This document shows, piece after piece, positions 1-36,559 of a stretch of DNA of 64,000 nucleotides. Origin of the DNA: Candidatus Thorarchaeota archaeon (lineage in GTDB: Archaea > Asgardarchaeota > Thorarchaeia > Thorarchaeales > Thorarchaeaceae); assembly GCA_018335335.1 (NCBI GenBank), contig JAGXKG010000001.1, forward strand, positions 253,600-317,599, given 5' to 3'. How positions within the stretch are numbered: the first letter of the stretch is position 1; each line of letters opens with the position of its first letter. The position numbers and the translations under genes are program-made. The notes beneath the pieces are model-generated. The model was not told where the DNA came from. It ran no database searches and saw only the letters and a list, made by a program, of their open reading frames with translations.

Positions 1-138
1 AGAGACCTTAGAATGTTAGCAAGGGCATGTCAACAGGTTGCAGCAGAGAATCTAAGGAAATCGGGAGATCCAACCGTTACTATCAATATTGCAGAGGCTG
101 TGGCTGAAGCTTATTCTGAGATTCTCAAGGAGGTTAGG
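1..138 (+). CDS. 3' end of an upstream gene (partial, C-terminal ~45 aa ...GDPTVTININIAEAVAEAYSEILKEVR*)
   Basis: Open frame from window edge to TAA at 136-138; next gene's GGAGGT RBS overlaps its end. Confidence 0.3.
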
Positions 139-143
139 TAAAA

Positions 144-422
144 ATGAGTGTTCTTGGAAAATACCGAAAGAAAGAAGAAAAGGAAACAAAGGATGAGGAG
201 GAAGTAGACAGAGAAGAAACAAAGGACAACAGAGAATCTGTTCCCAATAGTGAAAGAAAGAGCCCAATAGTTTCCTTCTCAATTGGGGCGGATTTGAGAT
301 CTTGTCTTCAAGCTGTTAGAGAGGAGAATGCCATAAATTTGAGCATGTGGGTTGATAAACAACTAAGACTAGCGGTATCAGACAGATTTCCAAAAATTGC
401 TGGACAACATCTCAAGTCGTAG
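144..422 (+). CDS. Ribbon-helix-helix (CopG/Arc-like) DNA-binding protein with charged N-terminal tail
   Basis: 92 aa; C-terminal IVSFSIGADLRSCLQAVREENAINLSMWVDKQL fits beta-strand plus two helices of an RHH fold; GGAGGT 6 nt upstream of ATG. Confidence 0.45.
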   Translation: MSVLGKYRKKEEKETKDEEEVDREETKDNRESVPNSERKSPIVSFSIGADLRSCLQAVREENAINLSMWVDKQLRLAVSDRFPKIAGQHLKS

Positions 423-465
423 TGTTGTGATACTTGTAATACGATAATTGCCAGTACCAAAAGTT

Positions 466-1854: not shown

Positions 1855-1904
1855 ATCGAAATCTCATTTGTTTGATGTTTTATAACTACCTGACTTTTAG
1901 TAAT

Positions 1905-1916
1905 ACTTGTAATACC
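1905..1916. promoter_or_regulatory. TACTTGTAATAC 12-mer (one of three copies: 431-442, 1905-1916, 10093-10104)
   Basis: Exact 12-mer three times, all in noncoding DNA; this copy sits ~20 nt upstream of the TATA-like box of the acetyl-CoA synthetase gene (minus strand). Confidence 0.35.
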
Positions 1917-2156
1917 ATACAGATTTACGCTAGGAGAATTCCTTCACTAATTGTTACAACTTCCTATGATTCTGACAATCTTCGTTCAGCATTGATTTTA
2001 GTTGAGGGAGAAACCCAGGTCATTTTACGTAGAGATTCCTTATAGATTGAACACAGCGTTCCAAAATTGTAGGAGTATTTATCCTACAAGAAATGGAGGC
2101 TATTACCAAAGCAGATCGTTCGTCATAGAAATTCGATAGTGCAGTTATTAGAGGAG

Positions 2157-2690
2157 TCAAAACGCGTGGGGAATCTTCTGATGGACTATTATGGAATCAT
2201 TTGAGCGGACAATAACATCTGAATTAACTGATTCGATGAACTCTCTGTATCTTCGACTGGTTTCTTCCTTTCTGTAAGCCAAAAGGCCAACGTTAGTGGC
2301 GTTTTTTTTTTCAACGGGTATTGCGAGTTGGTTTCCAAGAGCATTAAGGGTCGCAATATTTTGATCAATAAGCGCCTCATGTAAAGGATGATATTTCTTG
2401 TTACTACGACGTGATAATCCGGATTCTTCGCTCAAATAGTCGGTTTCAATGTCAGGATAGCCTCTACTGATTTGTCGTATTACAGATAATACATCACTGA
2501 AATCTTCGTTGGAAATGAATCTTCCCGTAATCCCCAAATCAACGAGTTGTCGCCTATAGATTTCAGCATACCATAGTGGGATAATATCGAAAGAACCAGA
2601 AACCATCCATGAATCAACCTTGATCAGATTTGTTTGTCGAGGAGATTGTAATCTAATCAGTAATTCTCCATTTGACTCAACAAAACTCAC
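2157..2690 (-). CDS. Hypothetical protein (177 aa)
   Basis: Long ORF with protein-like composition; no recognisable motif; possibly the 3' part of a disrupted longer gene (see 2866-3111). Confidence 0.4.
   Translation of the reverse strand: MSFVESNGELLIRLQSPRQTNLIKVDSWMVSGSFDIIPLWYAEIYRRQLVDLGITGRFISNEDFSDVLSVIRQISRGYPDIETDYLSEESGLSRRSNKKYHPLHEALIDQNIATLNALGNQLAIPVEKKNATNVGLLAYRKEETSRRYREFIESVNSDVIVRSNDSIIVHQKIPHAF
2475..2493. repeat. 19-nt exact repeat TCGTATTACAGATAATACA (copy 1), palindromic GTATTA-CAGA-TAATAC
   Basis: Identical 19-mer also at 4450-4468; arms are exact reverse complements. Confidence 0.4.
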
Positions 2691-2865
2691 AGGACTGAAG
2701 AATAGTGTGTCCCCGTTATTGAATTGTTTCCTTGCTGTTTCTCGAGATATTCTACTGAATGTTCTGAATGCTGATGCATCGATTCACAGGCCCTCACCTG
2801 ATTGACCATTTTCTTCGTTGGAATATCAACTGGCTCAAGTCCAGACTAGTAGAATACAGAGAAGG

Positions 2866-3111
2866 TCACTTCTCTCTGTTTGAGGAGTTCCATTTCCATT
2901 TCTGGGTTCTCAATTCCGATACGACAAAGGTATGTCCAATTCTCTGCTTCCAAAAGAAAATCACAAGCAGTCGATCAACCCAATTTAATTTCGATTCCAG
3001 CGAGGAAATCCATTGCATCTCGTTCTCTTCGATCTGCATTGCTCGAACCAAGAAATCCTTCATCTTTCTGGAATGACCAGCTTCGATTTCCCTTTGAAGC
3101 ATTTCACGCAA
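2866..3111 (-). CDS. Hypothetical 81-aa ORF, possibly N-terminal fragment of a frameshifted gene continuing in 2157-2690
   Basis: Coiled, protein-like sequence; same strand and 175 nt upstream of the 177-aa ORF in a different frame; competing + strand ORFs overlap. Confidence 0.2.
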   Translation of the reverse strand: MREMLQREIEAGHSRKMKDFLVRAMQIEENEMQWISSLESKLNWVDRLLVIFFWKQRIGHTFVVSELRTQKWKWNSSNREK

Positions 3112-3691
3112 TTCGTGAAATCTATCTTCAGGATTCAGCCTCTTCCATATTTGATCTGATACCGTCTACAATAGAATGTTACTTCGATAAAGGAGGAAAC
3201 TGCCAGTCAAGAATCGTATTACAAATATTACGATAAGAATAATTAAGGAATGATTTGTCCTTTGTGTTTGTTGACAGAAATAAGCGGTTTTCAAAATAGT
3301 CGAAAACACCTCGTTCTAAGATTAGAACTATTTACCCTCTTTGTATACTATACCTTGAGTGTGTCAGATTGATGCGTGGTAACCTAACCGGATGCAGGTT
3401 AATCCCCCTTGACTCAACGCATACGATGTTGGCATTTCTATCTCCTCAACAAATCACATACCTCTAAGAAGTTCCAATAGCGAGATCGATGAGTCGGCGG
3501 ACAGAGTTCCGGCAATCCGGTGCCATCATTGATTTGACACACTCGAGCATTTTTTGTAAGTCAGTCGACTTCTGTAATCCAGCTAGTTAACATATGTTGT
3601 ATTCCCATGAGATTGGAGACATGAAAGAAAGTTGGTTTTCATCACCATGTTTCAACTGTAATACATCTAATACGTCAAGTAATTGGCATTA

Positions 3692-4225
3692 TTATGATGA
3701 GTTGGATTGTTTTCTAGAGAGAGTTGTTTTCATAGGCAAGGAGCTTGCCAGCTGATCTATAGCATTTTGGAGTGTCTTCTCAGTAGCTGTATAGCTTTCT
3801 AGCTCTTCATCTGAAATACTTCGTTTCCCTGCTAGCGTTTGCCTAATTCTCCGATAGTTACCGATTCTGGTTGCTACTTCCTCGAAAGGTCTGAAAATCG
3901 TATAATCAAAAAGACCGAGATAAGCTAGAAGAAGCATAGTGTATAGACACTCAGTAACGTTTCGTCGTGCTTGCTTCAATGTTCTATTGAAGGCCCCCCG
4001 TGTTACACCCATTCCTTTACTTCCTGAATTGGATCTCAAATTAGCCTTTTCATCGTAGGTAATGTGGTCACCGTACTTGTCTTCTACGACAATGTCGATG
4101 AGTAGTGTCTCCAGTTGTGTTTCTGTGAGACCAGATTTTGGCAACAATGATTTAAGGATGGGCTCCTTCAGCACCTGTCTTGCATTGCTAGCTAGGTTTC
4201 TCAATTCTCTTTTTTCTTTACTCAA
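3692..4225 (-). CDS. Hypothetical protein (177 aa)
   Basis: ORF only; basic termini, no identifiable domain. Confidence 0.4.
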   Translation of the reverse strand: MSKEKRELRNLASNARQVLKEPILKSLLPKSGLTETQLETLLIDIVVEDKYGDHITYDEKANLRSNSGSKGMGVTRGAFNRTLKQARRNVTECLYTMLLLAYLGLFDYTIFRPFEEVATRIGNYRRIRQTLAGKRSISDEELESYTATEKTLQNAIDQLASSLPMKTTLSRKQSNSS

Positions 4226-4449
4226 CTCAATTCAACCTCAATAGACCAGCTGGCATTCCTTCAAAGGTAGTCTTTTTATCACCGCTCATAAAGCCCCATT
4301 TCATATTTACGGCCTTATGAGAGATGATTGGTCGGGGAAATATCTGTGTGTTTCTACGGATACAGTTCCGTATACGGGATTCTTCCCGGTCTACTTAAGC
4401 TAATCGCTAAGAGAACGAAAACTATAGAATTCGAAATTGATAAAATGAT

Positions 4450-4468
4450 TCGTATTACAGATAATACA
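4450..4468. repeat. 19-nt exact repeat TCGTATTACAGATAATACA (copy 2)
   Basis: Identical to 2475-2493; intergenic. Confidence 0.4.
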
Positions 4469-4479
4469 ACCAACTGGAA

Positions 4480-4893
4480 TTAGAAGGCCCATTGTCTATC
4501 AGGGGGAATTGATACGAATCGAAGAATCACATTCCCCCGAACCTTATCAAAACGGTGAACACCAAAATAATACCCTTTCTCACCTTCTGTCCATTCCAGC
4601 TTTCGTCTTTTTGAATAATAATTGAACAGAGTTCTACATCTCTCACGTATAACTGAGAAGAGGTTCTTATACTGCCTGCGTTGAGATGGTCGTATGTCCC
4701 ACTGATCAAGAATGAACCGATTTGCAAGACTGTTGCTTGATATGAGAAGCGAATTCTTGCATTTCTTCGATTCATCTATTTTCTCCATAAGTGCTGTACG
4801 TAGGCATTGTGGTATAGATGCAAGAATTGATGGCGTTATCTTGGGTTTTCCTCTAGCAGTATGCATGTTGCTCTTTGTTCCACGACCAGTCAA
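4480..4893 (-). CDS. Hypothetical basic protein (137 aa)
   Basis: ORF only, Lys/Arg-rich; lies in an ~830-bp gene-poor stretch. Confidence 0.25.
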   Translation of the reverse strand: MTGRGTKSNMHTARGKPKITPSILASIPQCLRTALMEKIDESKKCKNSLLISSNSLANRFILDQWDIRPSQRRQYKNLFSVIRERCRTLFNYYSKRRKLEWTEGEKGYYFGVHRFDKVRGNVILRFVSIPPDRQWAF

Positions 4894-5061
4894 TGCGAAT
4901 CAGTAATGATATACGCATTGAGCCTTAAGAACATGTAAAACCAAAATTGTGGATATTCCACCACAAAATCATCAGAGACGAGATATTGTCTCGAATTCTA
5001 CTGCCACTCCATTGAATTAATATCATGAAAACTGATAAATTCAGCAGAGGTCCATTCAAGA

Positions 5062-7428
5062 TTGACAATAAGGGCTGAAATCCATGTTACTGGAATTGTA
5101 CAAGGAGTAGGATTTAGGCCATTCATTTACCGCGTAGCTAAGAGAGAATCTCTCAAAGGATATGTTTTGAATCTTGGAGATGCAGGAGTAAGGATAATAG
5201 CTGAAGGTAACCGCCAAAGCATTCTGAATCTAATTGATCACTTAAAGCATAATCCACCATCGATATCCCGGATCGAATCCCTTGAAATTGAATGGAAAGA
5301 AGCCGATGATGAATTCAGCGATTTCAAAATTGTGAAATCATCGGAAAGAAGAAGTGAAGATGCAGCTCCCGAAATTCCACCGGATATAGCTGTCTGTGAT
5401 AAGTGTATAAAAGAAATGCTAGATCCCTCGTCTCGTTGGTACCTTTATCCGTTTACAGCTTGTGCCGCTTGTGGACCCAGGTTCTCTACAATAACAGACC
5501 TGCCATACGATAGGCCAAATACGACTATGGATGAATTTTCGCTTTGTAATAAATGTAATACGGGATATACCAATCCACTGAATCGGCGATACCATGCACA
5601 AACCACAGCTTGCCCTAAATGTGGCCCCACATACAAACTGACAACTAATGAAAAAGAGATCGCACGTGGACATGAAGCGGTCTCTGAAACTGCGCACCTA
5701 CTAGCAAAGGGATCTATTGTTGCAATACAAGGAATTACGGGAACACATCTCGCTACAAAAACTACGGAATTAGAACCAATTAGGAAACTAAGAAGTAGAA
5801 AACAGAGGCCAAACCAACCTTTTGCAATTATGACAGAGAGCATAGAGAGAATGAAGCAATTCCTAGTCTTTTCAGAATATGAAGAGGAATTACTCATGTC
5901 GTGGAGACGGCCTATTGTATTGATTGAGAAGAAAGAAATGCCAATAAAGAATAATCACGGAGCAGTCAGCGGAATGCCGACCAAGTCTTTTGAGGAAATA
6001 GCTCCCGGATTGGACACAGTGGGGGTTATGTTGCCCTATGCTCCGCTACACCATCTACTCTTTCATTTCAGTCAAGAACCAGCATTCGTCATGACAAGTG
6101 CCAATCCAAGTGGGGTGCCAATGTACAAAGATCCAGAGACTATTCTATCACAGCTTACCAATATAGCTGATTACTTTCTAGTTCACGACCGGGAAATCCG
6201 TCAAAGAGCTGATGATTCTGTTTTGAAGGTCGTTCACAAGAAGAATGCGGTTTTCATAAGACGCTCACGGAGTTTTGTTCCAAATCCAATTACCTTGAAA
6301 CAACCAATCAAAGAAACAAAGATAGTTGGAGTCGGACCAGAAGAAAAGGCGACAGCATCCATTTTGAAATCAGGCAGTATCTATATGACCCAACATATAG
6401 GCGACACAAATCGGCTTGAAAGCTTGGAATTTCTCGACGAAGCCATTCAACACATGATGCACCTTCTCGGAATTGAAAACCTAGATGCTATCGCATGTGA
6501 CTTACATCCTCAATTCCTAAGCACTGAATATGCCGAAGAACAAGCTAGATTAAATGACATAGCTTTACACCGGGTACAACATCATCATGCCCATCTAGCC
6601 GCCATACTTGTTGATCACGAATTAGAACTTGATACCCGTATTGTGTGTATTACAGCCGATGGATATGGATACGGACCTGATGGAAGTGGATGGGGCGGGG
6701 AAATCCTGTTAGGCAACGCTTTAGACTGCACACGAGAATCCGGCTTAATGAAGCAAGTATATCCAGGAGGCGATCTTTCAGCCAAGTTCAGCACGAGAGC
6801 GCTCTTGAGTATACTTCATGATTCTATCCCGAGTGATGAAATCATTAAGTTAGTAGGAAATGCACGAATAAGCAAAAATGCTATAGCAACCGAAGATTCT
6901 ATCTCGATGCTTATCGATATGATAGAGAATGACATAAACACGTTGGCAAGTAGCAGTACAGGACGCGTGCTAGATGCAATTGCATCGGCGCTTGGAGTCT
7001 GTTCTGAGAACACTTACGATGGCGAGTGTCCAATGAAACTTGAAGCTCATGCAAAGGAGACGGATCTGCGAATTGAACCAGTGTACCTAAAGACAAGAGG
7101 AGGAAGAGAACTGGATACTACTGAATTCTTGAAATCAGTAGTTGAACTGAAGAAGAAAGGAATTAATTCGCGAGAAATCGCGTATGCTGCTCAATGGTCG
7201 CTCGGTGAAGCGCTTGCTGAATTAGCCGTAAGAACAGCAGACAATGAAAACATACAACGTATTGGATTCTCAGGAGGGGTTGCTCTAAACCGTATTCTTA
7301 CAAAAGCGATAGTATCACAAATAGAGTCTGTAGGGAAAACACCACTGATACATAACAAGGTTCCTCCAGGAGACGCAGGGATTTCGCTTGGGCAAGTTGC
7401 TGTTGCCGCCCTTCACGAAACAGAGTAG
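5062..7428 (+). CDS. hypF: [NiFe]-hydrogenase maturation carbamoyltransferase HypF
   Basis: 788 aa; N-terminal acylphosphatase domain (VQGVGFRPF), two CxxC-x18-CxxC zinc fingers, YrdC-like and Kae1/YgjD-like C-terminal domains; TTG start. Confidence 0.9.
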   Translation: MTIRAEIHVTGIVQGVGFRPFIYRVAKRESLKGYVLNLGDAGVRIIAEGNRQSILNLIDHLKHNPPSISRIESLEIEWKEADDEFSDFKIVKSSERRSEDAAPEIPPDIAVCDKCIKEMLDPSSRWYLYPFTACAACGPRFSTITDLPYDRPNTTMDEFSLCNKCNTGYTNPLNRRYHAQTTACPKCGPTYKLTTNEKEIARGHEAVSETAHLLAKGSIVAIQGITGTHLATKTTELEPIRKLRSRKQRPNQPFAIMTESIERMKQFLVFSEYEEELLMSWRRPIVLIEKKEMPIKNNHGAVSGMPTKSFEEIAPGLDTVGVMLPYAPLHHLLFHFSQEPAFVMTSANPSGVPMYKDPETILSQLTNIADYFLVHDREIRQRADDSVLKVVHKKNAVFIRRSRSFVPNPITLKQPIKETKIVGVGPEEKATASILKSGSIYMTQHIGDTNRLESLEFLDEAIQHMMHLLGIENLDAIACDLHPQFLSTEYAEEQARLNDIALHRVQHHHAHLAAILVDHELELDTRIVCITADGYGYGPDGSGWGGEILLGNALDCTRESGLMKQVYPGGDLSAKFSTRALLSILHDSIPSDEIIKLVGNARISKNAIATEDSISMLIDMIENDINTLASSSTGRVLDAIASALGVCSENTYDGECPMKLEAHAKETDLRIEPVYLKTRGGRELDTTEFLKSVVELKKKGINSREIAYAAQWSLGEALAELAVRTADNENIQRIGFSGGVALNRILTKAIVSQIESVGKTPLIHNKVPPGDAGISLGQVAVAALHETE

Positions 7429-7474
7429 ATATGCAGATGTGAAAGACGGGTCAATCCTTTGGAGCTAGAATCAG

Positions 7475-8089
7475 TTAGTTATTGCTCTCAGCTTTAGAGA
7501 ATCCTAATTCAATCGCCTTTACATTGATTTCTTCGAATTTGCCAGGGAATTTCTTGCGTACAACGTCAATTGCAGTCTCTTTCGTAATTGGGAGCAAATC
7601 AGTAGCTACTATAGCACCTAAAAGCACCATATTCATTGCCCGAGAACTTCCTGCTTCTTTTGCAAGATCCATCGCATTGATTTCAGTAATATTGGAAGTG
7701 AGCTTCTCTATATTCGAAGTTATTTCGTCAAGGGCAGGATACTCGGCCTTTCCCATTGATACCGAAACTGGATATTGAATGTGTGAACTCATCAACACAT
7801 GGCCGTTTTCTTTCATTCTAGTTATTTCTCGAAGAGTCTCTACTGGCTCAAAGCCAACTAAAATATCGGCAAGGCCTTCATCAACGATAGGACCTTTCGC
7901 CATTGGCCCAATCCTAACAGTACAAATTACATGTCCACCCCGCTGAGCCATTCCATGTATTTCTCCAACTCGTACATTATATGACTCCTTTAGGGCAGCT
8001 TTGGCCAACAGTTCTGCTAAGGTGAGAACGCCTTGTCCTCCGACTCCTGAAATCACTATATTTATTGTATTACGAGTATTACTAGACAT
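7475..8089 (-). CDS. iorB: Indolepyruvate:ferredoxin oxidoreductase beta subunit
   Basis: NIVISGVGGQGV...GMAQRGG 2-oxoacid:Fd oxidoreductase gamma-type fold; start trimmed to MSSNTRN ATG at 8089, 2 nt after the iorA stop. Confidence 0.85.
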   Translation of the reverse strand: MSSNTRNTINIVISGVGGQGVLTLAELLAKAALKESYNVRVGEIHGMAQRGGHVICTVRIGPMAKGPIVDEGLADILVGFEPVETLREITRMKENGHVLMSSHIQYPVSVSMGKAEYPALDEITSNIEKLTSNITEINAMDLAKEAGSSRAMNMVLLGAIVATDLLPITKETAIDVVRKKFPGKFEEINVKAIELGFSKAESNN

Positions 8090-8091
8090 CT

Positions 8092-9981
8092 TTATTCCTC
8101 CTGTATAATGGCTCCTACAGGACACACATCCACACAAGTGCCACAGAAGTTACAGAGATCTTCGTCAATGGCCGCCTTGCCTGTTTCGGTATCTAAATAC
8201 ATGGCAGGACAAGATAAACGATTGAGACATCTTTTACACCCTGTACAAAGCTCCTCATCAACATAATAGGGCGAAGGGTGTTCATTGTTTTTTCTTCGTT
8301 CTGCAGCTGTAAGAAGCGCACAGGGAGCCTTTGAAATCATCACAGCAGGTGCTTGATTTTCACGTATCCAATCTAACATCTTTCGGATATCTGCTACAAG
8401 ATCGGCTAATGGACCAAAAGGATCAACCGTTTGCACATATTGAACACCCAGACCCTCACAAACCTTTTCTATATCTAGAGAGGGAACTTGTTCGCCCATA
8501 CCAGTTAAGCCCGTACCGGGATGGGGTTGATGCCCTGTCATAGCGGTCGTTCTATTATCTAGCACAACAAGAGCTATTGGGTGTTGATTATAGACAGCAT
8601 TTGCAATACCCGGCAGTCCAGAAGCAAAGAAGGTACTGTCACCAATGGAAGCAACAACATCCTGATCGGTTACGCGAGCAATTCCACAAGCGGTAGTAAT
8701 TGAAGAACCCATATCAAAAAGGATGTCAGCTGTCTCCAAGGGAGGAGAAATACTCAACGTGTAACAGCCAATGTCTGAAGGGTAGATCGCTTTTCCTCGA
8801 GTGGCAGTTCGAATTGCGTAGTAAGTTGCTCGATGAGGACAACCGGGGCACAAAAGAGGAGGGCGAGGAGGGAGTTCCGGTAACCCCTCTTTCATATCTT
8901 CAATTTCTCGCCAGTCAACAGGTGGCTCTCGATTCATAATTCTTGAGAGGACATTCATTACAATCTTGGGACTATATTCGTATACCTCAGGGAAGTAACC
9001 CTGTTCCTTTCCAAGGATGGTTACATCAATCTCCTCCAATTGAGCTATTCTTCGGGCATGGGTTTCCAGAAAAGGTTGAAGCTCCTCAACGATAATTATT
9101 CGTTCATGTCGACTGAGAAGCTGCTTAATCTTTTCGTCTGGAACAGGATGTGACATTCCAATCTTTAGTATTTCAGCATCGAGCTCCATTGTTGATAGTG
9201 CTTCGAGAACATAGTTATACGAGACTCCACTAGTAAGGATACCGAGATCTCCTGAACCTTCAAAGAAATTCAGTTCAGAGGAGTTGGAAATTTCTCGGGC
9301 TTTTTCTATTTGTTCAAGAAGCCATGGATGTCGTTTCCTTGCCACAGCCGGAACCGGAACAAAACGGAAGGGATCCTTTTCGAATGAAACCGTTTCAGGA
9401 CGTTCCATAATCTTGTCGTAGATGATTGGAGCGCGTGTATGATTGACACGAGTTGTCGTACGAAGAAGAAAAGGTAATTCAAGACGTTCAGAGTATTCAT
9501 ACGCCTTATGAAGCATCTCTTTTGCTTCAATAGGATCAGCGGGTTCAAGCATTGGCACATTTCCCATTAAAGCGTAGTATCGGGAATCATTCTCATTCTG
9601 GGAACTCCACATACTTGGATCATCAGCTACAACAATAACCATACCAGCCCTGACACCCACATATGCCAAGGAGAAAAATGGGTCAGCCGCAACATTGAGT
9701 CCTGGTCCTTTACAAACCATCATGGATCGAGATCCAGAAATAGCCGCAGCACCTGCAACTTCCATAGCTACCTTCTCATTTGAACTAAACTCAAAATAGA
9801 AGTCTTCAAGGTGTGGTGCCATTCTAGCAAGGTTGTTGCCAATTTCACTACTTGGGGTTCCAGGATACAATGCTACAAGACGAACACCAGATTCGAGTAC
9901 GCCTCTTGCAATGGCTTCGTTAGCCAATAATAGAACTTCCTTACCAGATGCATCTTCTAAGAGAGTATCGACTTTTGTCAA
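8092..9981 (-). CDS. iorA: Indolepyruvate:ferredoxin oxidoreductase alpha subunit
   Basis: 629 aa; TPP-binding domain; CPGCPH motif; C-terminal 2x[4Fe-4S] motifs (CTGCKRC...CP, CNFCGTCVDVCP). Confidence 0.9.
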   Translation of the reverse strand: MTKVDTLLEDASGKEVLLLANEAIARGVLESGVRLVALYPGTPSSEIGNNLARMAPHLEDFYFEFSSNEKVAMEVAGAAAISGSRSMMVCKGPGLNVAADPFFSLAYVGVRAGMVIVVADDPSMWSSQNENDSRYYALMGNVPMLEPADPIEAKEMLHKAYEYSERLELPFLLRTTTRVNHTRAPIIYDKIMERPETVSFEKDPFRFVPVPAVARKRHPWLLEQIEKAREISNSSELNFFEGSGDLGILTSGVSYNYVLEALSTMELDAEILKIGMSHPVPDEKIKQLLSRHERIIIVEELQPFLETHARRIAQLEEIDVTILGKEQGYFPEVYEYSPKIVMNVLSRIMNREPPVDWREIEDMKEGLPELPPRPPLLCPGCPHRATYYAIRTATRGKAIYPSDIGCYTLSISPPLETADILFDMGSSITTACGIARVTDQDVVASIGDSTFFASGLPGIANAVYNQHPIALVVLDNRTTAMTGHQPHPGTGLTGMGEQVPSLDIEKVCEGLGVQYVQTVDPFGPLADLVADIRKMLDWIRENQAPAVMISKAPCALLTAAERRKNNEHPSPYYVDEELCTGCKRCLNRLSCPAMYLDTETGKAAIDEDLCNFCGTCVDVCPVGAIIQEE

Positions 9982-10112
9982 TTATTTGCCTCCGATCCAG
10001 TCCAAGGCTAGTTCAAGTTCAGGAGAAATTAAGTTACGCTATCAGTCTTGTGGTGAACGAGCGGAGTTGTTACACGTGTTCTATTATTGTACTACTTGTA
10101 ATACATGACTAA

Positions 10113-10136
10113 CTCCCCTCTATTTCCACTGGAAAT
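10113..10136 (-). promoter_or_regulatory. Origin recognition box (ORB)-like element, reverse orientation, followed by AT-rich stretch
   Basis: Reverse strand reads TTCCAGTGGAAATAGAGGGGAG, matching archaeal ORB core TCCAGTGGAAAC plus G-tract; >75% AT with duplicated AAAAAATGGAGA at 10137-10260. Confidence 0.5.
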
Positions 10137-10747
10137 AAAAAATGGAGAAGCTCAAAAGACATTTGTATATACATTAAAAAAATGGAGATAAAATAAATAT
10201 GAACTAGCCTATATATATATCTTTCCATAGACCTTCTTATTTCTTCATATTTATTCTACACGAAATCAGGGGGTCATATGATCAATTGGAACACGTGTAA
10301 CAAATTATGCAATTCTTTCACCTTTGAACTTCTTGGACTACCTCAAAAATACGAAATTGTACTACGTCTTGGAATTCAGTGAAAAGATCTAAGCATTCTT
10401 GATAACATACTTCTGGAATCAATATGGCAGAATCATTCACTCTGTTTGCATCTTCACATGTATCTAGAAGACCGGGTTTTCTACGTTCTTTATATCCTTC
10501 TGTTGTCTTCCATTTGTATTTGTAACCATACAGCTGCTTTGTGAATGAAACCCGTTTGGAATTTGCCTCCTTTGAGCTATTACAGTCATACAAAAACAAA
10601 AACGATTTCACATATGACACCACAGATAGTGGAACACATGTTCTAAATTTCAAGCTCTGTATTATACTTTTGAGAGGAAAATGTTAAATCGATGTGTCTC
10701 GCGACTTTCAGTATCGACCAACAGATTCATTGAAAGCTGGTGAATAC

Positions 10748-12061
10748 ATGGTTACTTTCGCTATTCGCAAGGAAGAGAAAGCTTTCGAAGCTAGAACGCC
10801 TTTGGTACCTGAACATCTAGGCAAGCTAATTATCGATGAAGGCATTGACTTCATCGTTGAACCTAGTAATCAACGAGCTTTCAATGACAAAGAATACGAA
10901 GATGTTGGAGCCACTCTTTCCAGTGTCAAAGGTAGCAACGCATCGGTTGTTCTTGGACTTAAAGAGATGCCCAATTCCGTTTTTGAACCTAGGAAAGTCT
11001 ATGTTTTCTTTAGTCATACAATCAAAGGCCAGGAGCATAATATGCCTATGCTCAGACAAATAATGAATACTGGTGCAACACTTCTTGACTATGAGCTAAT
11101 TGTTAATGATGAAGGATCGCGGCTGGTATATTTTGGTAACTGGGCTGGTATGGCCGGAATCTCCGATACACTAAGGCTTCTAGGCCGAAGACTTGAATAC
11201 GAGCAAATCGATCCTAATCCATTCCTAGGGTTGAAGCCGACTCTCGATTGTAATGGACTCAAGGGGCTACGAAACGAGTTCAAAAAACTGGGCCGAAGAA
11301 TAAACGAACTAGGTCTTCCTCAATCCACTCTTCCTTTTGTAGTAGGCTTTGCTGGATATGGAAATGTTTCTTCAGGAGCACAGAAGCTCTTTGACATTCT
11401 TCCACACAAGACTGTGAACCCTGAAGATTTGGGCAATTTGGAGCCGCTTGAAGATACCCTGTACAAGTGTGTTTTCAAGGAAGAACATATGTTCAGACCT
11501 CTCGATAAAAGCGCCGATTTTGACTTACAGGATTATTACAAGAAAGGTTCCAAAGCCTATCAAGCTAGATTCCACCGTTATGTCCCGCATATTACTGTGC
11601 TAATGAATTGTATCTATTGGAGTCCTAAGTATCCTCGACTTCTAACCAAGGACTTCATCACGGATCATTGGGACGAAAGCCATCGCACACTCAGGATTGT
11701 TGGAGATATATCCTGTGACATAAATGGAGCAATAGAATTCACTGAAACCTCTACAAAACCAAACAAACCTGCTTTCACATATATTGTCAAAGAGGATAGA
11801 ATTCTTCATGGTGTGAAAGGGGAAGGCCCTGTCGTGGTGGCTGTGGACAATCTTCCTGCTGAACTACCCAAGGAATCTTCGTATTCCTTTAGCCAAACTC
11901 TGCTTCCCTTCATTCCCCCTCTTGCTTCAGCTGATTATTCCTCGTCCTATGCAGAGCTTCAACTTCCCCGTGAGCTCAAGGACGCTATTATTGTCTACAA
12001 AGGCGATTTAACAAACGAATTTGAATATTTGAAAGAGCATCTAACGGAGGAAAAGACATGA
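10748..12061 (+). CDS. Lysine-ketoglutarate reductase (saccharopine dehydrogenase, L-lysine-forming), AASS N-terminal-domain homolog
   Basis: Strong collinear similarity to the LKR half of eukaryotic alpha-aminoadipic semialdehyde synthase (RTPLVPEHL, VYVFFSHTIKGQEHNMPML, VYFGNWAGMAGI); start moved to internal ATG (MVTFAIRKEE) by homology. Confidence 0.85.
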   Translation: MVTFAIRKEEKAFEARTPLVPEHLGKLIIDEGIDFIVEPSNQRAFNDKEYEDVGATLSSVKGSNASVVLGLKEMPNSVFEPRKVYVFFSHTIKGQEHNMPMLRQIMNTGATLLDYELIVNDEGSRLVYFGNWAGMAGISDTLRLLGRRLEYEQIDPNPFLGLKPTLDCNGLKGLRNEFKKLGRRINELGLPQSTLPFVVGFAGYGNVSSGAQKLFDILPHKTVNPEDLGNLEPLEDTLYKCVFKEEHMFRPLDKSADFDLQDYYKKGSKAYQARFHRYVPHITVLMNCIYWSPKYPRLLTKDFITDHWDESHRTLRIVGDISCDINGAIEFTETSTKPNKPAFTYIVKEDRILHGVKGEGPVVVAVDNLPAELPKESSYSFSQTLLPFIPPLASADYSSSYAELQLPRELKDAIIVYKGDLTNEFEYLKEHLTEEKT

Positions 12062-13374
12062 AAGAAATCTTATGTTTGGGAGCAGGCCTTGTTGCGAAAC
12101 CATATGTTGACTATTTGTGCGGCCATGGTTACAATGTAGTTGTAGCTAGCAGAACAAAAGCAAAAGCCGAGAAACTAGTTAGTACATATGACAATGCCGA
12201 GGCGAGTCAATTCAATATCAAAACAGATCATGAACTATTAGAAACCATGGTTTCAAGTGCTGATCTCGTTTGTTCGCTTTTGCCCTATACCTTCCACGTA
12301 CAAGCCGCGAAAGTTGCAATTGAGTATGAGACTCCATTCTGTACTACTTCTTACATTTCTGATGAGATGTGGGCTTTGGATGAGGATGCTAAAGAAGCTA
12401 GCATTATTCTGTTGAATGAATGTGGTGTGGATCCTGGTATAGATCACATGAGTGCCAAAAGAATCATTGACGAAATTCACACCCGGGGTGGCGAGATTGA
12501 GAGTTTCACTTCATATACCGGTGGGCTTCCTGCACCTGATGATAATGACAATCCATTTGGTTACAAGCTTTCTTGGAGCCCAAGAGGCGTACTCTTGGCA
12601 GGAACTAATGATGCTCATTTTCTCCGCGACGGTGAACAAGTTGAGATTCCTGCCTCCGAGCTTTTCGGGAACTGTGAAGAAATGGAGATTCCAGGTTTAG
12701 GTACCTTTGAAGGTTATCCGAATCGAGATAGTATCTCGTACATTGACATATATTCCATACCTGAGACAAAGACAATGATTCGCGGGACTCTTCGCTATCC
12801 CGGTTGGTGTAGAACTCTCAAGGCAATTACTGATTTGGGCCTTCTCAGTCTCGAAGAACAAGATTTCGATGGGATGACCTATTATGGCTTAGTCAGTGAT
12901 TTGACCGGTTCACCTCAGAATAATTTGAGAACCGCTGTTAGCGAACTTGTCAACTTAGAACCGAATGATTCTGTACTGGACAGACTGGAATGGCTTGGTC
13001 TGTTTGATGAAAAGACCATCCCCAAAGATACCAAGACCCCCCTAGATGCGTTATGTAACCTATTCGAGCAAAAGCTACAGTACGGTCCAAATGAGCGTGA
13101 CATGATAGTTATGCGCCATCAGTTTATTGTCAACTATGACAACAAGAAGGAAGAAATCACCTCTACATTAATTGACTATGGCCATCCTGGCGGTGATTCT
13201 TCTATGTCGAGAACTGTTGCATTGCCGGTTGCTATCGCCAGTCATATGATTTTGGAAAACGAAATCAATTTGGAAGGGGTATTCCGTCCCACTCTACCTG
13301 ACATATACGAACCAATCCTGAATGAACTGGAAAAGCATGACATCGAATTTGAAGAACACAGGAAACCAATATAG
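12058..13374 (+). CDS. Saccharopine dehydrogenase (L-glutamate-forming), AASS C-terminal-domain homolog
   Basis: 438 aa; Rossmann N-terminus ILCLGAGLVAKP; collinear with the SDH half of eukaryotic AASS/LYS9 (GVDPGIDHM, GGLPAPDDNDNPFGYKLSWSPRGVL, EGYPNRDS, GTLRYPGW, YGPNERDMIVMRH); ATGA overlap with upstream gene. Confidence 0.85.
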   Translation: MKEILCLGAGLVAKPYVDYLCGHGYNVVVASRTKAKAEKLVSTYDNAEASQFNIKTDHELLETMVSSADLVCSLLPYTFHVQAAKVAIEYETPFCTTSYISDEMWALDEDAKEASIILLNECGVDPGIDHMSAKRIIDEIHTRGGEIESFTSYTGGLPAPDDNDNPFGYKLSWSPRGVLLAGTNDAHFLRDGEQVEIPASELFGNCEEMEIPGLGTFEGYPNRDSISYIDIYSIPETKTMIRGTLRYPGWCRTLKAITDLGLLSLEEQDFDGMTYYGLVSDLTGSPQNNLRTAVSELVNLEPNDSVLDRLEWLGLFDEKTIPKDTKTPLDALCNLFEQKLQYGPNERDMIVMRHQFIVNYDNKKEEITSTLIDYGHPGGDSSMSRTVALPVAIASHMILENEINLEGVFRPTLPDIYEPILNELEKHDIEFEEHRKPI

Positions 13375-13402
13375 ATAGCACTCGCTTTACACTATCCTCA
13401 GT

Positions 13403-14023
13403 TCACTCTCTATGTATCTGGAATGTAGAAAGGATTCTCTCAGCTCGCTTGATATCGCTCTGAACTTGACTCAGTTCAGTCTTTAGTCTATATGTGTATC
13501 CAGTCCTGTTTCCATACCTTTCTAAATCTCCTTGTCCTTCATCCCAGATTCTTGCAAGGTATGTTGAGGCAGTGCTTTTTGGCATTTTTTCGCCAAAAGT
13601 AGTTTCATAGATTTCTGCGACATCCAATGATGAGAACTTTCCATGTTTAAAAGATGCATAGATAACCATCTGCATCTTTTCGAAGTTACTCATGGAATCG
13701 AAATGAATTTCATCTAGTATCGATTCTTGTACTGCTTCTTCTTCGCGAAATTCACAACCTGTGCTAGTCTCAAGAAACACTTGGAATTTCTCGAACATTT
13801 CATCCACAGAACCTCTGATCTGGAAGCTCGATTCTTCCCCTGTGGCTTCATCATGTACTAGAATCTTGAAATCAAAAGGATTCTCGGTAAGTTTCAAGAT
13901 TTTCTTGAATCTATTAAGAGCTTCATCCGGCTGAACATATTTGCATTCGAAAATTTCCCTTGAACCTGGACCAGAGCTGTATGTGAACTCATATACATAG
14001 GGTGTTCGATCACTCTTGTCCAA
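13403..14023 (-). CDS. Hypothetical protein with probable C-terminal winged-helix
   Basis: 206 aa; C-terminal STASTYLARIWDEG...RTGYTYRLK resembles a wHTH recognition helix plus wing; borders the ORB/iteron region. Confidence 0.45.
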   Translation of the reverse strand: MDKSDRTPYVYEFTYSSGPGSREIFECKYVQPDEALNRFKKILKLTENPFDFKILVHDEATGEESSFQIRGSVDEMFEKFQVFLETSTGCEFREEEAVQESILDEIHFDSMSNFEKMQMVIYASFKHGKFSSLDVAEIYETTFGEKMPKSTASTYLARIWDEGQGDLERYGNRTGYTYRLKTELSQVQSDIKRAERILSTFQIHRE

Positions 14024-14059
14024 GTTAATCCCACAATTTCATTTTTGTTGGTGTAGCTC

Positions 14060-14510
14060 CAGTTAAGAAGCCATTCACATCTTTACAATTAGCTCTGCAA
14101 ATAAGTGTAAGTATGTGAATCGTATATACCTCGATAGTAGCTTTATAATGCAACATATTACCAAAAAACCTTCTGTCTCAATTGAAAACAACAAAAACAG
14201 CCTAATAAACCCTTTTAGAACAAAAATACCCCTCATAAATTCCCAAAGTCAATTTAAAGAATTTTCTCCAATCTCTTCCTTGTTCACTTTGCTATCAGAT
14301 TTGTGAATGGTTGAAAAGATGCTTCATAAGTCTCGTATTCAATCTCCAGTGGAAACGAAGGGGTGGCCTTATTCACATGGGTAAACAGAGTTATGAACTC
14401 TTCATTTTGATATTAGAAGTATTTCCGCTTCGTTCACAAAAACGTATTCACATTCTTGGCGCCATTCACACTAGAGCAATGTGAATATGTGTAGATACTG
14501 TGAAATGTAA
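14060..14510. repeat. Iteron-like array of TTCACA(T)/(A)TGTGAA boxes in a 519-bp intergenic region
   Basis: About 9 copies of the hexamer in both orientations in ~450 bp (about 0.25 expected by chance), including GCCATTCACA twice and ATTCACA...TGTGAAT inverted pairs. Confidence 0.45.
14345..14364 (+). promoter_or_regulatory. ORB-like element (TCCAGTGGAAACGAAGGGGT)
   Basis: Near-exact match to archaeal ORB consensus (TCCAGTGGAAAC core plus GGGG tract). Confidence 0.5.
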
Positions 14511-14542
14511 ATATATTCTCGCCCTAATGCCGCTGTTGTGTG

Positions 14543-16360
14543 TTATAGTACTGTTACAGATTTGGCTAAGTTACGAGGTTTATCTGGATCATACCCCTTT
14601 CTTGTAGCCATGTAGTAGCTAAATAGCTGCAAAGGTATCACAAAAGGCATCACTGAAAACTCAGGCTCAATGCCTTGTGGAACTTGGAAAACGTGATCGG
14701 AAAGGTCCTTCAATTCTTCATCTCCTTTTTCAATCACTGAGATGATAGAAGCTCCTCTTGCTTTCATTTCCATGATATTCCCAACAAGCCTTTCCCTTGT
14801 TTGGTCTTTGGGGGCAACAAAAATGACCGGATATCCTTCTTCAACCAATGCTATTGGACCATGTTTCGATTCGCCTGCACTATAGGCTTCTGCGTGATTA
14901 TATGCAATTTCCTTCAGCTTAAGTGCGCCTTCTCTAGCTGTTGCTATAGATATACCACGCCCTAAGAATAGGAGACTTGGAGCATCATAATAGACTCCCG
15001 CTATGCTCCTTGCTTTTTCTTCTTCCGTAGCTATTACTGTAGATATTACATCGGGAATTTTTTCAAGAGATCTTTCCTTTCTCTCAATCAGTTTCTCACT
15101 TGAACCAGAGAAACGACCTAGCTCAATAGCAATCTGGGCCAACGCGGTTAATTGGACCATGAATGTCTTTGTAGCGGCCACTCCAATTTCCGGCCCTGCT
15201 TGCGTAATTATTGTATGATCCGCGACCCTCGTGATTGAGCTACCTACTACATTGGTCACTGCTATCACAGTTGAACCAAACTTCTTTGCATACTTGGCTG
15301 CGCTAACCGTATCAGTAGTTTCACCTGACTGAGTAATTGCCAATACTAGATCATCTTCAGACAAGGTATCATATATCGTGTCTTCAAAATCGCTTGCTAG
15401 CTCAAAAACCGGGACGATTTCTGACATCGATGCAAACATATGCTTACAGGCCATTCCTGCATGACCTGAAGTTCCCATCGCTATTACATAGATTCGCTCA
15501 GAATTGACAATCATTTCTCCCGCCTTCTCAATGGTTTCCTTGCGAATTCTGAGAGTGTTACGTACAGCGTCCGGCTGCTCATGAATTTCCTTCAGCATAA
15601 AATGTGGAAAACCCGCTTTCTCCGCTTGGTCCGCAGTCCAGCTGATTTTCACGGCATCCCTTTCAACTTCAGAACCATCAGAGAGTTTTTCGAGTTTTAT
15701 CTCCTCTGGAGTGATTATGGCAATTTCTCCATCCAATAAAAGAATCATATCTCTTGTCATAGGAAGAAAAGCTGGAATATCGGACGAGACATATGATGCG
15801 TCTTTTCCCTTCCCAATCACGAGTGGGTTTCCATCTCGTGTACAAACTATACGATCTGGTTCGTCTACTCTCATAGCTACTATCGCATATGTACCATTTA
15901 TTCTGGTCGTGACTTGAGCAACGGCTTCTTTCAAATCATAGCCCTGTTCAAGTAAATCTTCAATCATGTGAGGGATAACTTCTGTGTCTGTTTCCGATTT
16001 GAATTTATGGTTTTTCTTCAATTCTTTCCTTAATTTCATGAAGTTATCTATTACACCATTATGTACAACAGCAACTCTGTTATCACAATCAAAATGTGGG
16101 TGTGCGTTTAAAAGAGATGGAACCCCATGAGTCGCCCATCTGGTATGCCCTATTCCCATTCTTCCTGGTAAATCATCCAGATTCAGTCGTTTATGAACCT
16201 CGTCAATTTTTCCCTTGTCCTTCTTAGTGTGAAGCTTTCCTTCGTAGATGGTTGTTAAGCCTACTGAATCATACCCTCTATACTCCAGACGTTTCAATGC
16301 CTGATGAAGAAAAGGTGCAACTTCTCCACGTTTTTGGACGACACCTACTATACCACACAC
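14543..16360 (-). CDS. glmS: Glutamine--fructose-6-phosphate aminotransferase
   Basis: 605 aa; N-terminal MCGIVG class-II amidotransferase nucleophile; two SIS domains. Confidence 0.9.
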   Translation of the reverse strand: MCGIVGVVQKRGEVAPFLHQALKRLEYRGYDSVGLTTIYEGKLHTKKDKGKIDEVHKRLNLDDLPGRMGIGHTRWATHGVPSLLNAHPHFDCDNRVAVVHNGVIDNFMKLRKELKKNHKFKSETDTEVIPHMIEDLLEQGYDLKEAVAQVTTRINGTYAIVAMRVDEPDRIVCTRDGNPLVIGKGKDASYVSSDIPAFLPMTRDMILLLDGEIAIITPEEIKLEKLSDGSEVERDAVKISWTADQAEKAGFPHFMLKEIHEQPDAVRNTLRIRKETIEKAGEMIVNSERIYVIAMGTSGHAGMACKHMFASMSEIVPVFELASDFEDTIYDTLSEDDLVLAITQSGETTDTVSAAKYAKKFGSTVIAVTNVVGSSITRVADHTIITQAGPEIGVAATKTFMVQLTALAQIAIELGRFSGSSEKLIERKERSLEKIPDVISTVIATEEEKARSIAGVYYDAPSLLFLGRGISIATAREGALKLKEIAYNHAEAYSAGESKHGPIALVEEGYPVIFVAPKDQTRERLVGNIMEMKARGASIISVIEKGDEELKDLSDHVFQVPQGIEPEFSVMPFVIPLQLFSYYMATRKGYDPDKPRNLAKSVTVL

Positions 16361-16446
16361 GCTGAAATTCTCCTGATATCTTGTTGTTCAACTTCAAATA
16401 CTGAAGCCAGTGCGTATAAGAAGCTTCAATCCGGAAAAGATGTCTA

Positions 16447-16794
16447 TTAACCAGTAAGTTCTATTTCAATGTATACCGAATCCGGTATCTTTACACGCAT
16501 GATTTGTCTAATGGCTCTTTCGTCCGCATCAATATCAATCAAGCGTTTGTGGATTCTCATCTCCCATTTGTCCCAAGATTGAGAACCTTGTCCACACGGA
16601 GTCTTTCGCGTTGGAACAACCATTCTTCTAGTAGGTAAGGGAATGGGACCAGCCATGCGGACACCTGTCTTGCGGGTGATGCGCTTAATCTGACTGCATA
16701 CATCATCTAGATGTTCAGTACTCGTACTTGACAACCTTATTCTTGCTCTTTGTGACATTTGGAATCGCACCCGCTTGGTAGGTGTCTTTTCCAA
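16447..16794 (-). CDS. rps10: 30S ribosomal protein S10 (uS10)
   Basis: 115 aa; ARIRLSSTS...[24 protein letters not shown] typical uS10; not in the usual tuf operon context. Confidence 0.9.
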
Positions 16795-16909
16795 CCTTTT
16801 TCAATCTGGATAAAAAGCTTGTCTTATGCATGGTCATTTCAAATAAAAGAAAAGAGTAAAAGCTATTATTTGGTTCTCCTGTCTAAGAAAATACCGGTAG
16901 GCTAGTCTC

Positions 16910-17701
16910 TTGAATGACCTAATAATTGTGAAGCTCGGCGGTTCAGTGATTACCAACAAAGGCGAATCACCCCCATCTGTCAACAACGATCGGATACATC
17001 GAATAGCACGCGAACTCGCCAATCACAATGGCCCTATGATAGCTGTGTTAGGTGGTGGGGCCCATGGTCATCAACCAGCCAGTCGCTATGGATTTGGCAA
17101 CCCTAAAACTCCAAGGCAAAAACGTTTGGCCGGTCTTCCCAAAATCCGGAACAATATGTCAATTCTTTCTTCGGAAGTAGTTGGCTCTTTGCAAGATTCG
17201 GGTCTGCCAGCTGTTGCCTTTCCACCTTTTACCTTTGCTCGTCTTAGGAATAACCACATCCAGCATTTCCCCTGTTCGTTCATAGAAAAGGCATTGAATT
17301 CCGATTTCCTCGTCGTCACTCATGGGGATGTATGTTTTGATGAAAAATTAGGAGCTTCCATATTGAGTGGAGATACGATTGTAGTATATTTGGCCAACAG
17401 ACTCAATCCAACGGGAGTTTACATCGGAACAGATGTTGATGGCGTCCATTATGAAAATCCTGATACTAATCCCAAGGCAAAAGTAATACCTGTAATACAA
17501 TCCAATGACATTGAAAAGGCCTTATCCAGCACTGGCCCATCTTCATCTGTGGATGTTACTGGTGGGATGGACAACAAAGTTAGGGAATTACTCACCATAA
17601 ATCAAAGAACAAAAATTGCCATATTCAATCTGAATATTGCTGGACGACTGTCTACTCTTCTAAAAGGTAAGACACCAATCTGTACACTCATTCAACCATG
17701 A
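16910..17701 (+). CDS. Isopentenyl phosphate kinase (amino-acid kinase family)
   Basis: 263 aa; KLGGS, VLGGGAHGH, THGD, LSGDTIVVYLAN, GTDVDGV, VDVTGGM motifs matching archaeal IPK. Confidence 0.85.
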   Translation: MNDLIIVKLGGSVITNKGESPPSVNNDRIHRIARELANHNGPMIAVLGGGAHGHQPASRYGFGNPKTPRQKRLAGLPKIRNNMSILSSEVVGSLQDSGLPAVAFPPFTFARLRNNHIQHFPCSFIEKALNSDFLVVTHGDVCFDEKLGASILSGDTIVVYLANRLNPTGVYIGTDVDGVHYENPDTNPKAKVIPVIQSNDIEKALSSTGPSSSVDVTGGMDNKVRELLTINQRTKIAIFNLNIAGRLSTLLKGKTPICTLIQP

Positions 17702-31501: not shown

Positions 31502-31554
31502 TCATTAGTGTCTTTCGATATGCTTTTATCACAATCCCGAATTCTGCTATTTTG

Positions 31555-31655
31555 GCGGCCGTGGTCTAGCATGGTTAGGACTGAAGCTTCCCAAGCTTCC
31601 GACCCGAGACGGGAATGCAATTTCCGCGGGAATTCAAATCCCGGCGGCCGCACCA
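31555..31655 (+). tRNA. tRNA with 23-24-nt insertion in variable/T region; best reading tRNA-Gly (CCC); CCA encoded
   Basis: Canonical 5' half: acceptor GCGGCCG/CGGCCGC, U8, D-arm GUCU-AGCAUGGUUA-GGAC, anticodon arm GAAGC-UUCCCAA-GCUUC; 3' T-loop UUCAAAUCCCGG present; an extra segment with direct repeat CGGGAAU and a second hairpin (CGGGA-AUGCAAU-UUCCG, GCA) lies between. Confidence 0.6.
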
Positions 31656-31844
31656 TTTTCGTTTTTCGTCATCTTTAAGGGAACACCCTCTACAGATTAC
31701 TAGGCGAGTGATGACTGTTATGACCCCAATGAGTCTTCTTGACGATGATATGGATCTTGAGTGAGGAACTCGCCACTAATACTTTCGGTCACCTCCTATA
31801 TCAGTATTCGATTAAACGTATAAACCGCAAAATGCTTTTAAGTA

Positions 31845-33068: not shown

Positions 33069-33086
33069 GGGGCTTATGCTTCTACT

Positions 33087-33371: not shown

Positions 33372-33385
33372 TGGGTGAGTATTGA

Positions 33386-36533: not shown

Positions 36534-36559
36534 AAAGGCATCGTGAGAACGATGCCTTT
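36534..36559. promoter_or_regulatory. Perfect 10-bp-stem hairpin AAAGGCATCG-TGAGAA-CGATGCCTTT in divergent rfcS/GINS-like promoter region
   Basis: Perfect inverted repeat; no downstream T-tract, so not a typical archaeal terminator. Confidence 0.3.

Follow-up and report, generated by a model that had tools for sequence, protein, structure and literature searches.

Introduction

Lysine-ketoglutarate reductase (LKR) and saccharopine dehydrogenase (SDH), which catalyze the two initial steps of the saccharopine pathway, form one fused polypeptide in the eukaryotic alpha-aminoadipic semialdehyde synthase (AASS). For bacteria, the experimental verification of a monofunctional lkr was achieved with Ruegeria pomeroyi (SPO3307; PMC4334477), and unfused bacterial lkr/sdh genes were described by Serrano et al. 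(2012, FEBS Lett) and Neshich et al. (2013, ISME J), as cited in PMC9490328, PMC7253579, and PMC4334477. All characterized AASS-type LKRs are catabolic, i.e., those of animals and plants (PMC7253579, PMC9490328) as well as SPO3307 of R. pomeroyi (PMC4334477). Here, an lkr-sdh gene pair is described that is located on a stretch of 64,000 nt from Candidatus Thorarchaeota archaeon (contig JAGXKG010000001.1). This whole stretch is called "the window" in the following, all positions refer to it, and "Thor" denotes the Thorarchaeota. The pair is an ordinary metabolic operon and, unfused bacterial lkr/sdh genes being already known, it is a further, in this case Asgard, example of the prokaryotic lkr-sdh module.

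Two overlapping genes for LKR and SDH

The genes lkr and sdh are two open reading frames (ORFs), each with its own start and stop codon, and, thus, do not encode one fused polypeptide. Both are full length relative to their homologs. The ATG of sdh (12058-12060) and the TGA of lkr (12059-12061) share nucleotides, and the sequence of the junction is ACATGAAAG / GGAGGAAAAGACATGAAAG. The original prediction, which had been made from the letters alone, had described two genes with a 4-nt overlap, and this description was borne out by the ORFs and by the ATGA at 12058-12061. Together with a GGAGG motif inside the 3'-end of lkr, the ATGA overlap suggests that the translation of the two genes is coupled. 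The overlap is variable among relatives: the contig L001 (78% identical) has a gap of 2 nt, gaps of 9-22 nt were obtained by tblastn for other Thor loci, and an identical 4-nt lkr/sdh overlap is present in the bacterial contig L086.

The likely start codon of lkr is the ATG at 10748, because the Thor homologs have lengths of 433-435 aa and a Shine-Dalgarno-like GGTGA is located just upstream. An in-frame GTG at 10694 is a possible alternative (ORF 10694..12061). A candidate TATA-like box, TATTATAC, is found about 27 nt 5' of this GTG and about 80 nt 5' of the ATG.

The LKR matched the Pfam family AlaDh_PNT_N with an E-value of 2e-20, and the match to AlaDh_PNT_C was weak. Its best relative with a solved structure was the LKR domain of human AASS (8e8u), and residues 4-429 were colinear with residues 8-445 of that domain (E 1e-62). 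Based on the domain architecture and on this colinearity, the protein has the extended AASS-type form of about 430-450 aa. Yeast LYS1, which represents the form of about 370 aa, aligned with residues 2-142 only (E 2e-22), and a fungal LYS1-type enzyme was rejected because the short form could not be aligned over the whole length. An alanine dehydrogenase or the alpha subunit of a pyridine nucleotide transhydrogenase (PNT) was also rejected, with a score of 19.8 bits for NCBIfam TIGR00518, the cut-off of which is 391.85 bits.

An alignment with yeast LYS1 revealed that R16, K72, E73, H90, K93, E116, and R125 of the LKR correspond to R18, K77, E78, H96, K99, E122, and R131, and K77 and H96 are the acid-base pair of the yeast enzyme (PMC9490328, its ref. 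18). By alignment, K72/H90 represent the acid-base Lys/His pair, and R16/R125 are the carboxylate-binding arginines. In addition, A133-G134 aligned with the Ala-Gly nicotinamide motif, which is A154-G155 in human AASS (PMC9490328). All seven residues and A133-G134 were invariant among 12 diverse homologs (alignment A2).

The SDH matched the Pfam families Sacchrp_dh_NADP (E 1e-20) and Sacchrp_dh_C (E 5e-89), and it could be aligned over its entire length with yeast LYS9 (E 7e-97), with the saccharopine reductase of Magnaporthe (E 3e-96), and with the SDH domain of human AASS (E 4.5e-84). A generic, CANSDH-like Sacchrp_dh protein was rejected, as the PH1688-type reached an E-value of 2e-16 only. 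The scores of both proteins exceed by far what chance would give, and the relationship to the two halves of AASS is at the level of orthologs. The assignment of the two proteins to the LKR and SDH halves of AASS, including their collinearity, was therefore upheld, and so was the specific affinity to AASS as opposed to generic alanine dehydrogenase/PNT-like and SDH proteins. The "striking identity" to the eukaryotic enzymes, which had also been claimed, was not observed: BLASTP comparisons with the eukaryotic fusion proteins yielded 35-39% for the LKR and 33-43% for the SDH, i.e., solid homology only.

The cofactor-binding region of the SDH contains the motif VVVASRTKAKA, with S-R-T following beta-2, and it aligned with VTVACRT of the fungal NADP+ enzymes and with the position of ITVGSDMK in the human protein. 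Most prokaryotic homologs have A[ST]RT at this position. The resemblance of the ASRT motif to the fungal NADP-type ACRT, in contrast to the human NAD-type GSDM, suggests that the SDH uses NADP(H). Fungal LYS9 clustered with the SDH domains of eukaryotic AASS, apart from the SDH of the window. The higher score of the SDH against LYS9 than against human AASS is explained by the slow evolution of LYS9 within the eukaryotic clade, and, thus, the score implies no special relationship between the two.

Distribution of the gene pair

An exhaustive HMMER search with the LKR over 1.84 billion cluster representatives (50%-identity clusters) revealed that the family comprises 2486 clusters at E<1e-3 and 530 at E<1e-30. 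The best matches were unfused proteins of about 430 aa with 38-49% identity, while 40 of the 150 top matches were LKR-SDH fusion proteins (37-41% identity), and the named fusion proteins were eukaryotic (Andalucia, Thecamoeba, Pigoraptor, chytrids, and others). Next to these, LKR-SDH fusions of 864-881 aa, almost without a linker, were observed in bacteria, namely in Chloroflexota (Anaerolineae, Phototrophicaceae; proteins P0293-P0314). One such fusion gene (L084, 8001-10607, a contig of Logan SRR31724217) adjoins the genes for a class-I lysyl-tRNA synthetase and a class-III aminotransferase.

The genomes of GTDB, one per species, were scanned with a query alignment of 12 sequences. At least 595 LKR-encoding stretches were confirmed, which included Thermoplasmatota, Methanomassiliicoccales, and many bacterial phyla. 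The genomic neighborhoods were analyzed for the best 80 of these at least 595 stretches. Among the 80 were four Thor genomes (60-63% identity) and seven further archaeal genomes of Thermoplasmatota, Methanomassiliicoccales, and related groups (45-48%), and the bacterial loci (41-48%) belonged to Bacteroidota, Aminicenantes, Ignavibacteria, Chloroflexota, Acidobacteriota, Cloacimonadota, Neomarinimicrobiota, and others. An sdh gene was located directly downstream of lkr and on the same strand in 70 of the 80 loci, and this was also true for all Thor loci. Clustering of all neighboring ORFs of about 85 loci revealed that, besides sdh, no partner was conserved together with lkr. A class-III (ornithine aminotransferase-like) gene was observed within a few kb of lkr-sdh at five loci from two unrelated phyla, i.e., in L009, L013, and L023 (Thermoplasmatota) as well as in L044 and L082 (Cloacimonadota).

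Separate, adjacent lkr and sdh genes are the normal state in prokaryotes. The LKR of the window was also closer to non-Thor archaea and bacteria (41-49% identity) than to the eukaryotic fusion proteins (35-39%). Two further claims were not supported by these results, namely that the pathway is "eukaryote-type", because the family is mainly prokaryotic, and that it is "rare in archaea".

Relationship to the eukaryotic fusion enzymes

Trees were constructed with a distance method (neighbor-joining, NJ), without an outgroup and with a prokaryotic sample that was picked by similarity to the window protein. When 136 LKR domains were analyzed, a single clade (83%) contained the fusion proteins with one exception, and the Thor clade (100%) was placed within an unresolved bush of unfused sequences. 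A tree of the concatenated LKR and SDH (85 taxa, 869 columns, 200 bootstraps) contained the eukaryotes (100%) and Thor (100%) as separate clades. A bipartition uniting Thor and eukaryotes was obtained in 0 of the 200 NJ bootstraps, for the LKR, the SDH, and the concatenate alike. In the concatenated tree Thor was weakly joined with Haladaptatiplasma (44%), and other Thermoplasmatota grouped with Terriglobia (100%), which indicates transfer between the domains. Ranked by the mean distance to eukaryotes, the Thor LKRs occupied places 13 to 47 among 83 prokaryotic representatives. On the basis of these comparisons, the gene pair of the window is the unfused counterpart of eukaryotic AASS and not its specific sister.

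The trees bear directly on the possibility that eukaryotic AASS descends directly from the lkr-sdh pair of Asgard archaea, which would have come down vertically from the archaeal host, with the fusion taking place before the last eukaryotic common ancestor. If this were true, a mitochondrial or cytosolic enzyme of eukaryotic lysine catabolism would descend from the archaeal host. The window stems from an Asgard archaeon, and fused AASS occurs in Discoba, Amoebozoa, Holozoa, and chytrids and in plant-length forms, which argues for an ancient fusion. Furthermore, the deep NJ branches were poorly resolved, and the sample was one without identifiable Heimdall- or Hodarchaeales-type Asgards, so that, in this scenario, the link would have escaped the NJ trees for these two reasons. 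However, such an ancestry is very improbable in view of the complete lack of bootstrap support in all three data sets, the nesting of Thor among bacteria and Thermoplasmatota, the low ranks of the Thor LKRs in distance to eukaryotes, and the fact that the sequence closest to the eukaryotic branch in the concatenated tree was a Chloroflexota fusion protein. Accordingly, neither the special link between Asgard archaea and eukaryotes that the original prediction had implied nor the special evolutionary relevance was supported.

With its SDH half, the Chloroflexota fusion representative was joined to the branch of the eukaryotes (95%), and this was not the case for the LKR half (33%). This affinity could be due to an independent fusion or to long-branch attraction, or it could be a lead on the origin of AASS.

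Proposed function and direction of the pathway

The locus is probably a translationally coupled Asgard lkr-sdh operon that has a gene of its own for each of the two initial enzymes of the saccharopine pathway, works in the catabolic direction, and is an old, vertically inherited Thor member of a prokaryotic module. This explanation is built on the homology, the completeness of the domains, the conserved catalytic residues, the operon structure, and the wide distribution in prokaryotes, while the identity of the substrates and of the cofactor, the catabolic direction, and what becomes of the semialdehyde are predictions. The LKR would convert L-lysine, 2-oxoglutarate, and NAD(P)H to saccharopine, and the SDH would convert saccharopine to glutamate and 2-aminoadipate 6-semialdehyde, which is in equilibrium with piperideine-6-carboxylate. 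As a net result, the epsilon-amino group of lysine would be transferred to 2-oxoglutarate without pyridoxal phosphate (PLP). If both enzymes used NADP(H), no net redox change would occur, and the pair would be a redox-neutral, PLP-independent lysine epsilon-transaminase. The catabolic direction is proposed because it is the direction of all AASS-type LKRs studied so far.

A Loki-type Asgard contig (L085; JGI 3300037245, 1-17368) contains the two genes in divergent orientation, with SDH at 6638-7957 (-) and LKR at 8001-9368 (+). They are flanked by genes for BKACE/Kce, 4HBT, Kdd-like, KamA, MutS_V-like, KamD, and KamE proteins. The set of KamA, KamD/KamE, a Kdd-like protein, and Kce represents the classical lysine-fermentation cluster. 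The LKR of L085 belongs to the same 90% cluster as a protein that is annotated at NCBI as "Promethearchaeota archaeon". A single Asgard locus appears to combine two routes of lysine degradation. KamA was also found near lkr in one locus of Neomarinimicrobiota and one of Aminicenantes.

Several observations weigh against a catabolic operon. A gene for a downstream aminoadipate-semialdehyde dehydrogenase (Aldedh) was looked for, and neither it nor another downstream lysine-catabolic gene was present in the 64-kb window. The flanks of ±6-10 kb of about 85 related loci were also devoid of aldehyde dehydrogenase and downstream lysine-catabolic genes. The neighbors that are conserved in Thor, i.e., those for IorAB, the alpha subunit of ADP-forming acetyl-CoA synthetase (ACD), isopentenyl phosphate kinase, and GlmS, are not lysine-specific. 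In addition, the SDH shares the NADP-type motif with fungal LYS9, a biosynthetic enzyme, and its score with LYS9 exceeds that with human AASS, and, therefore, the direction cannot be read from the sequence.

As an alternative, the pair could operate in reverse and catalyze the last two steps of the fungal-type alpha-aminoadipate route of lysine biosynthesis, from the semialdehyde and glutamate via saccharopine to lysine. Both reactions are reversible, the SDH is closest to fungal LYS9 (E 7e-97) and has the NADP-type C/S-R-T motif in common with it, and a downstream catabolic gene is missing nearby. Yet the LKR has the long form typical of AASS and not that of the biosynthetic LYS1 type of 373 aa, a LYS2-like aminoadipate reductase was not found in the window or in the flanks, and lkr and sdh of L085 are embedded among lysine-fermentation genes. 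As the LYS9 score is also explained more simply by the slow evolution of LYS9, a biosynthetic role is unlikely.

A third possibility is that the enzymes mainly form piperideine-6-carboxylate/pipecolate or aminoadipate as compatible solutes, or that they act on a lysine analog. For R. pomeroyi and plants, the pathway has been connected with pipecolate, aminoadipate, and osmotic stress (PMC4334477, PMC7253579, PMC6397837), a short pathway would be in accordance with the absence of nearby downstream catabolic genes, and an ornithine-aminotransferase-like gene is located nearby in five loci. However, the window contains no hint of osmoadaptation, the residues for substrate binding correspond to those of enzymes for lysine and 2-oxoglutarate, and the context of L085 is fermentative, making this proposal quite improbable.

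Inheritance and genomic neighborhood

The 120 best LKR matches were 59-97% identical, and every named one stemmed from an Asgard metagenome-assembled genome (MAG) with the label Thorarchaeota, Promethearchaeia/-ota, or Hermodarchaeota. The window contains genes for Orc1/Cdc6, MCM, RFC, GINS, Kae1/Bud32, NurA/HerA, eukaryote-type ribosomal proteins, and a cluster of Roadblock and Arf-like GTPase genes, and it is a part of an Asgard chromosome. The gene order ACD-alpha/HypF/IorB-IorA/small ORF/lkr-sdh/206-aa ORF/GlmS was retained in Thor-type contigs with LKRs of 59-78% identity. The GC content was 0.426 for lkr and 0.430 for sdh, compared to 0.432±0.019 for the window, and GC3 and codon usage were also typical of the window. 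The conserved synteny and the normal composition argue for an old pair that was vertically inherited within the Thor clade.

These data also bear on the question whether the pair was recently acquired by horizontal transfer, be it from a bacterium or from a eukaryote, or represents a contamination of the assembly. The family has indeed moved between domains, as exemplified by the grouping of Thermoplasmatota with Terriglobia (100%). In contrast, GC, GC3, and codon usage of the two genes were indistinguishable from those of the flanking archaeal genes, Thor-type contigs with identities as low as 59-61% still had the same surrounding gene order, and the Thor clade was monophyletic at 100%, so that a recent arrival or a contamination is extremely unlikely. 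Recent horizontal transfer, for which the original prediction had proposed to inspect codon usage and neighbors, was rejected on the basis of composition and synteny.

The 206-aa protein encoded next to sdh is associated with the pair by synteny only, and its gene occupies the same position in all Thor-type loci. It has 304 homologs of 64-94% identity, which are confined to Thor-type Asgard MAGs, and it is more conserved than the LKR. A Pfam search with this protein yielded no match. An AlphaFold2 (AF2) model (pLDDT 65) comprised an N-terminal beta-beta-alpha-beta-beta-alpha unit and a C-terminal winged helix-turn-helix domain, and the latter resembled regulators of the PadR/MarR/RosR type (Foldseek E 3e-3 to 1e-2). 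Based on this model, the protein may be a regulator. At the other side of the pair, counterparts of the small ORF between IorA and lkr, with lengths of 95-118 aa, were observed in Thor and Hermod contigs (L002, L087), in which they have the same location.

The genes for IorB/IorA (7475-9981, -) are divergent from lkr, and a gene of the ACD alpha type is located at 466-1854 (-). The two subunits reached the scores of curated indolepyruvate:ferredoxin oxidoreductases (IorA 740 bits, cut-off 651 bits; IorB at the cut-off), and the idea that the adjacent oxidoreductase acts on 2-oxoadipate was therefore dropped. Ior and ACD genes are archaeal amino-acid fermentation genes, and their synteny with lkr-sdh was conserved across the Thor clade. 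A nearby "amino-acid kinase" gene was found to encode an isopentenyl phosphate kinase. The coordinates of the features of the locus are summarized in Table 1.

Table 1. Features of the lkr-sdh locus (window positions).
Feature	Position	Strand	Description
Candidate TATA-like box, TATTATAC	10660..10667	+	candidate archaeal TATA-like box; tentative reading of the sequence
Small ORF	10318..10653	-	111 aa as listed; between IorA and lkr; family search without match
GGTGA	10739..10743	+	Shine-Dalgarno-like; 4 nt 5' of the lkr ATG
lkr	10748..12061	+	437 aa; predicted monofunctional AASS-type lysine-ketoglutarate reductase (saccharopine dehydrogenase, L-lysine-forming, EC 1.5.1.8)
GGAGG	12046..12050	+	Shine-Dalgarno-like; within the lkr 3'-end, 7 nt 5' of the sdh ATG
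ATGA	12058..12061	+	4-nt overlap of lkr stop and sdh start, read from the sequence
sdh	12058..13374	+	438 aa; predicted saccharopine dehydrogenase (L-glutamate-forming), LYS9/AASS-SDH type
206-aa protein	13403..14023	-	convergent on sdh; same position in all Thor-type loci; associated by synteny only

Three further regions of the window were noted. At 46688-49158 (+) a Roadblock/LC7 protein (314 aa), a 305-aa protein without a family match, and an Arf/Ras-like GTPase (192 aa) are encoded in tandem, and this arrangement is a typical Asgard cluster of "eukaryotic signature" genes. An ORF of 890 aa without a Pfam match (27984-30656, +) overlaps the 3'-end of a POR-alpha-like gene (30266-31501, -) by about 390 nt. 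The POR-alpha-like gene is well supported, with Pfam matches that extend to residue 406 of 411, and the region 27984-31501 contains either a long convergent overlap or an 890-aa ORF that is partly spurious. Lastly, a replication cluster was found at 31501-39368, which comprises Orc1/Cdc6 (31845-33068), two RFC subunits (34170-36348, -), a GINS-like gene (36625-37200), and MCM (37296-39368). A replication origin could be located in the intergenic region 5' of Orc1/Cdc6.

Comparison with known systems

Taken together, the lkr-sdh pair does not alter the present view of how lysine metabolism evolved. What the pair adds is a PLP-independent lysine epsilon-deamination to the amino-acid-degrading repertoire that is inferred for Thor- and Loki-type Asgards, and a full-text literature search revealed no paper that discusses this reaction in these organisms. 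The "eukaryote-like" AASS halves represent a common prokaryotic two-gene module, and AASS halves in Asgard genomes are, therefore, not to be read as a eukaryotic signature.

The bacterial lkr/sdh genes exemplified by R. pomeroyi SPO3307 resemble the pair of the window in that separate AASS-type polypeptides are encoded in a prokaryote and serve lysine catabolism, in the case of the window by prediction. They differ in the host, which is an Asgard archaeon and probably an anaerobe in the case of the window, and in that a partner gene for aminoadipate-semialdehyde dehydrogenase was not found near the window pair.

With fungal LYS9 (EC 1.5.1.10; 2axq, 1e5l), which yielded the best matches of the SDH to solved structures, the NADP-type motif is common, and with fungal LYS1 (EC 1.5.1.7; 2q99, 3ugk) the LKR has the catalytic Lys/His pair and the Arg residues in common. 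Both fungal enzymes are, however, biosynthetic, LYS1 is short (373 aa) and aligns with residues 2-142 of the LKR only, and LYS9 groups with the SDH domains of eukaryotes.

Eukaryotic AASS (human 8e8u, 5l78) is homologous to both proteins over the full length, and the catalytic residues and the Ala-Gly motif are conserved. In contrast to the two genes of the window, AASS is one fused polypeptide with a linker, and the identities are about 33-43%. The SDH of the window has the NADP-type S-R-T where human AASS has S-D-M, and the pair is placed outside the eukaryotic clade in the NJ trees.

The operons of Thermoplasmatota and bacteria (L009, L013, L018, L021, L027) have neighborhoods that differ from that of the window, and no further gene is conserved together with the pair. 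They contain, however, the same two-gene module, with identities of 41-49% for the LKR and 36-54% for the SDH, and mostly also the A[ST]RT motif.

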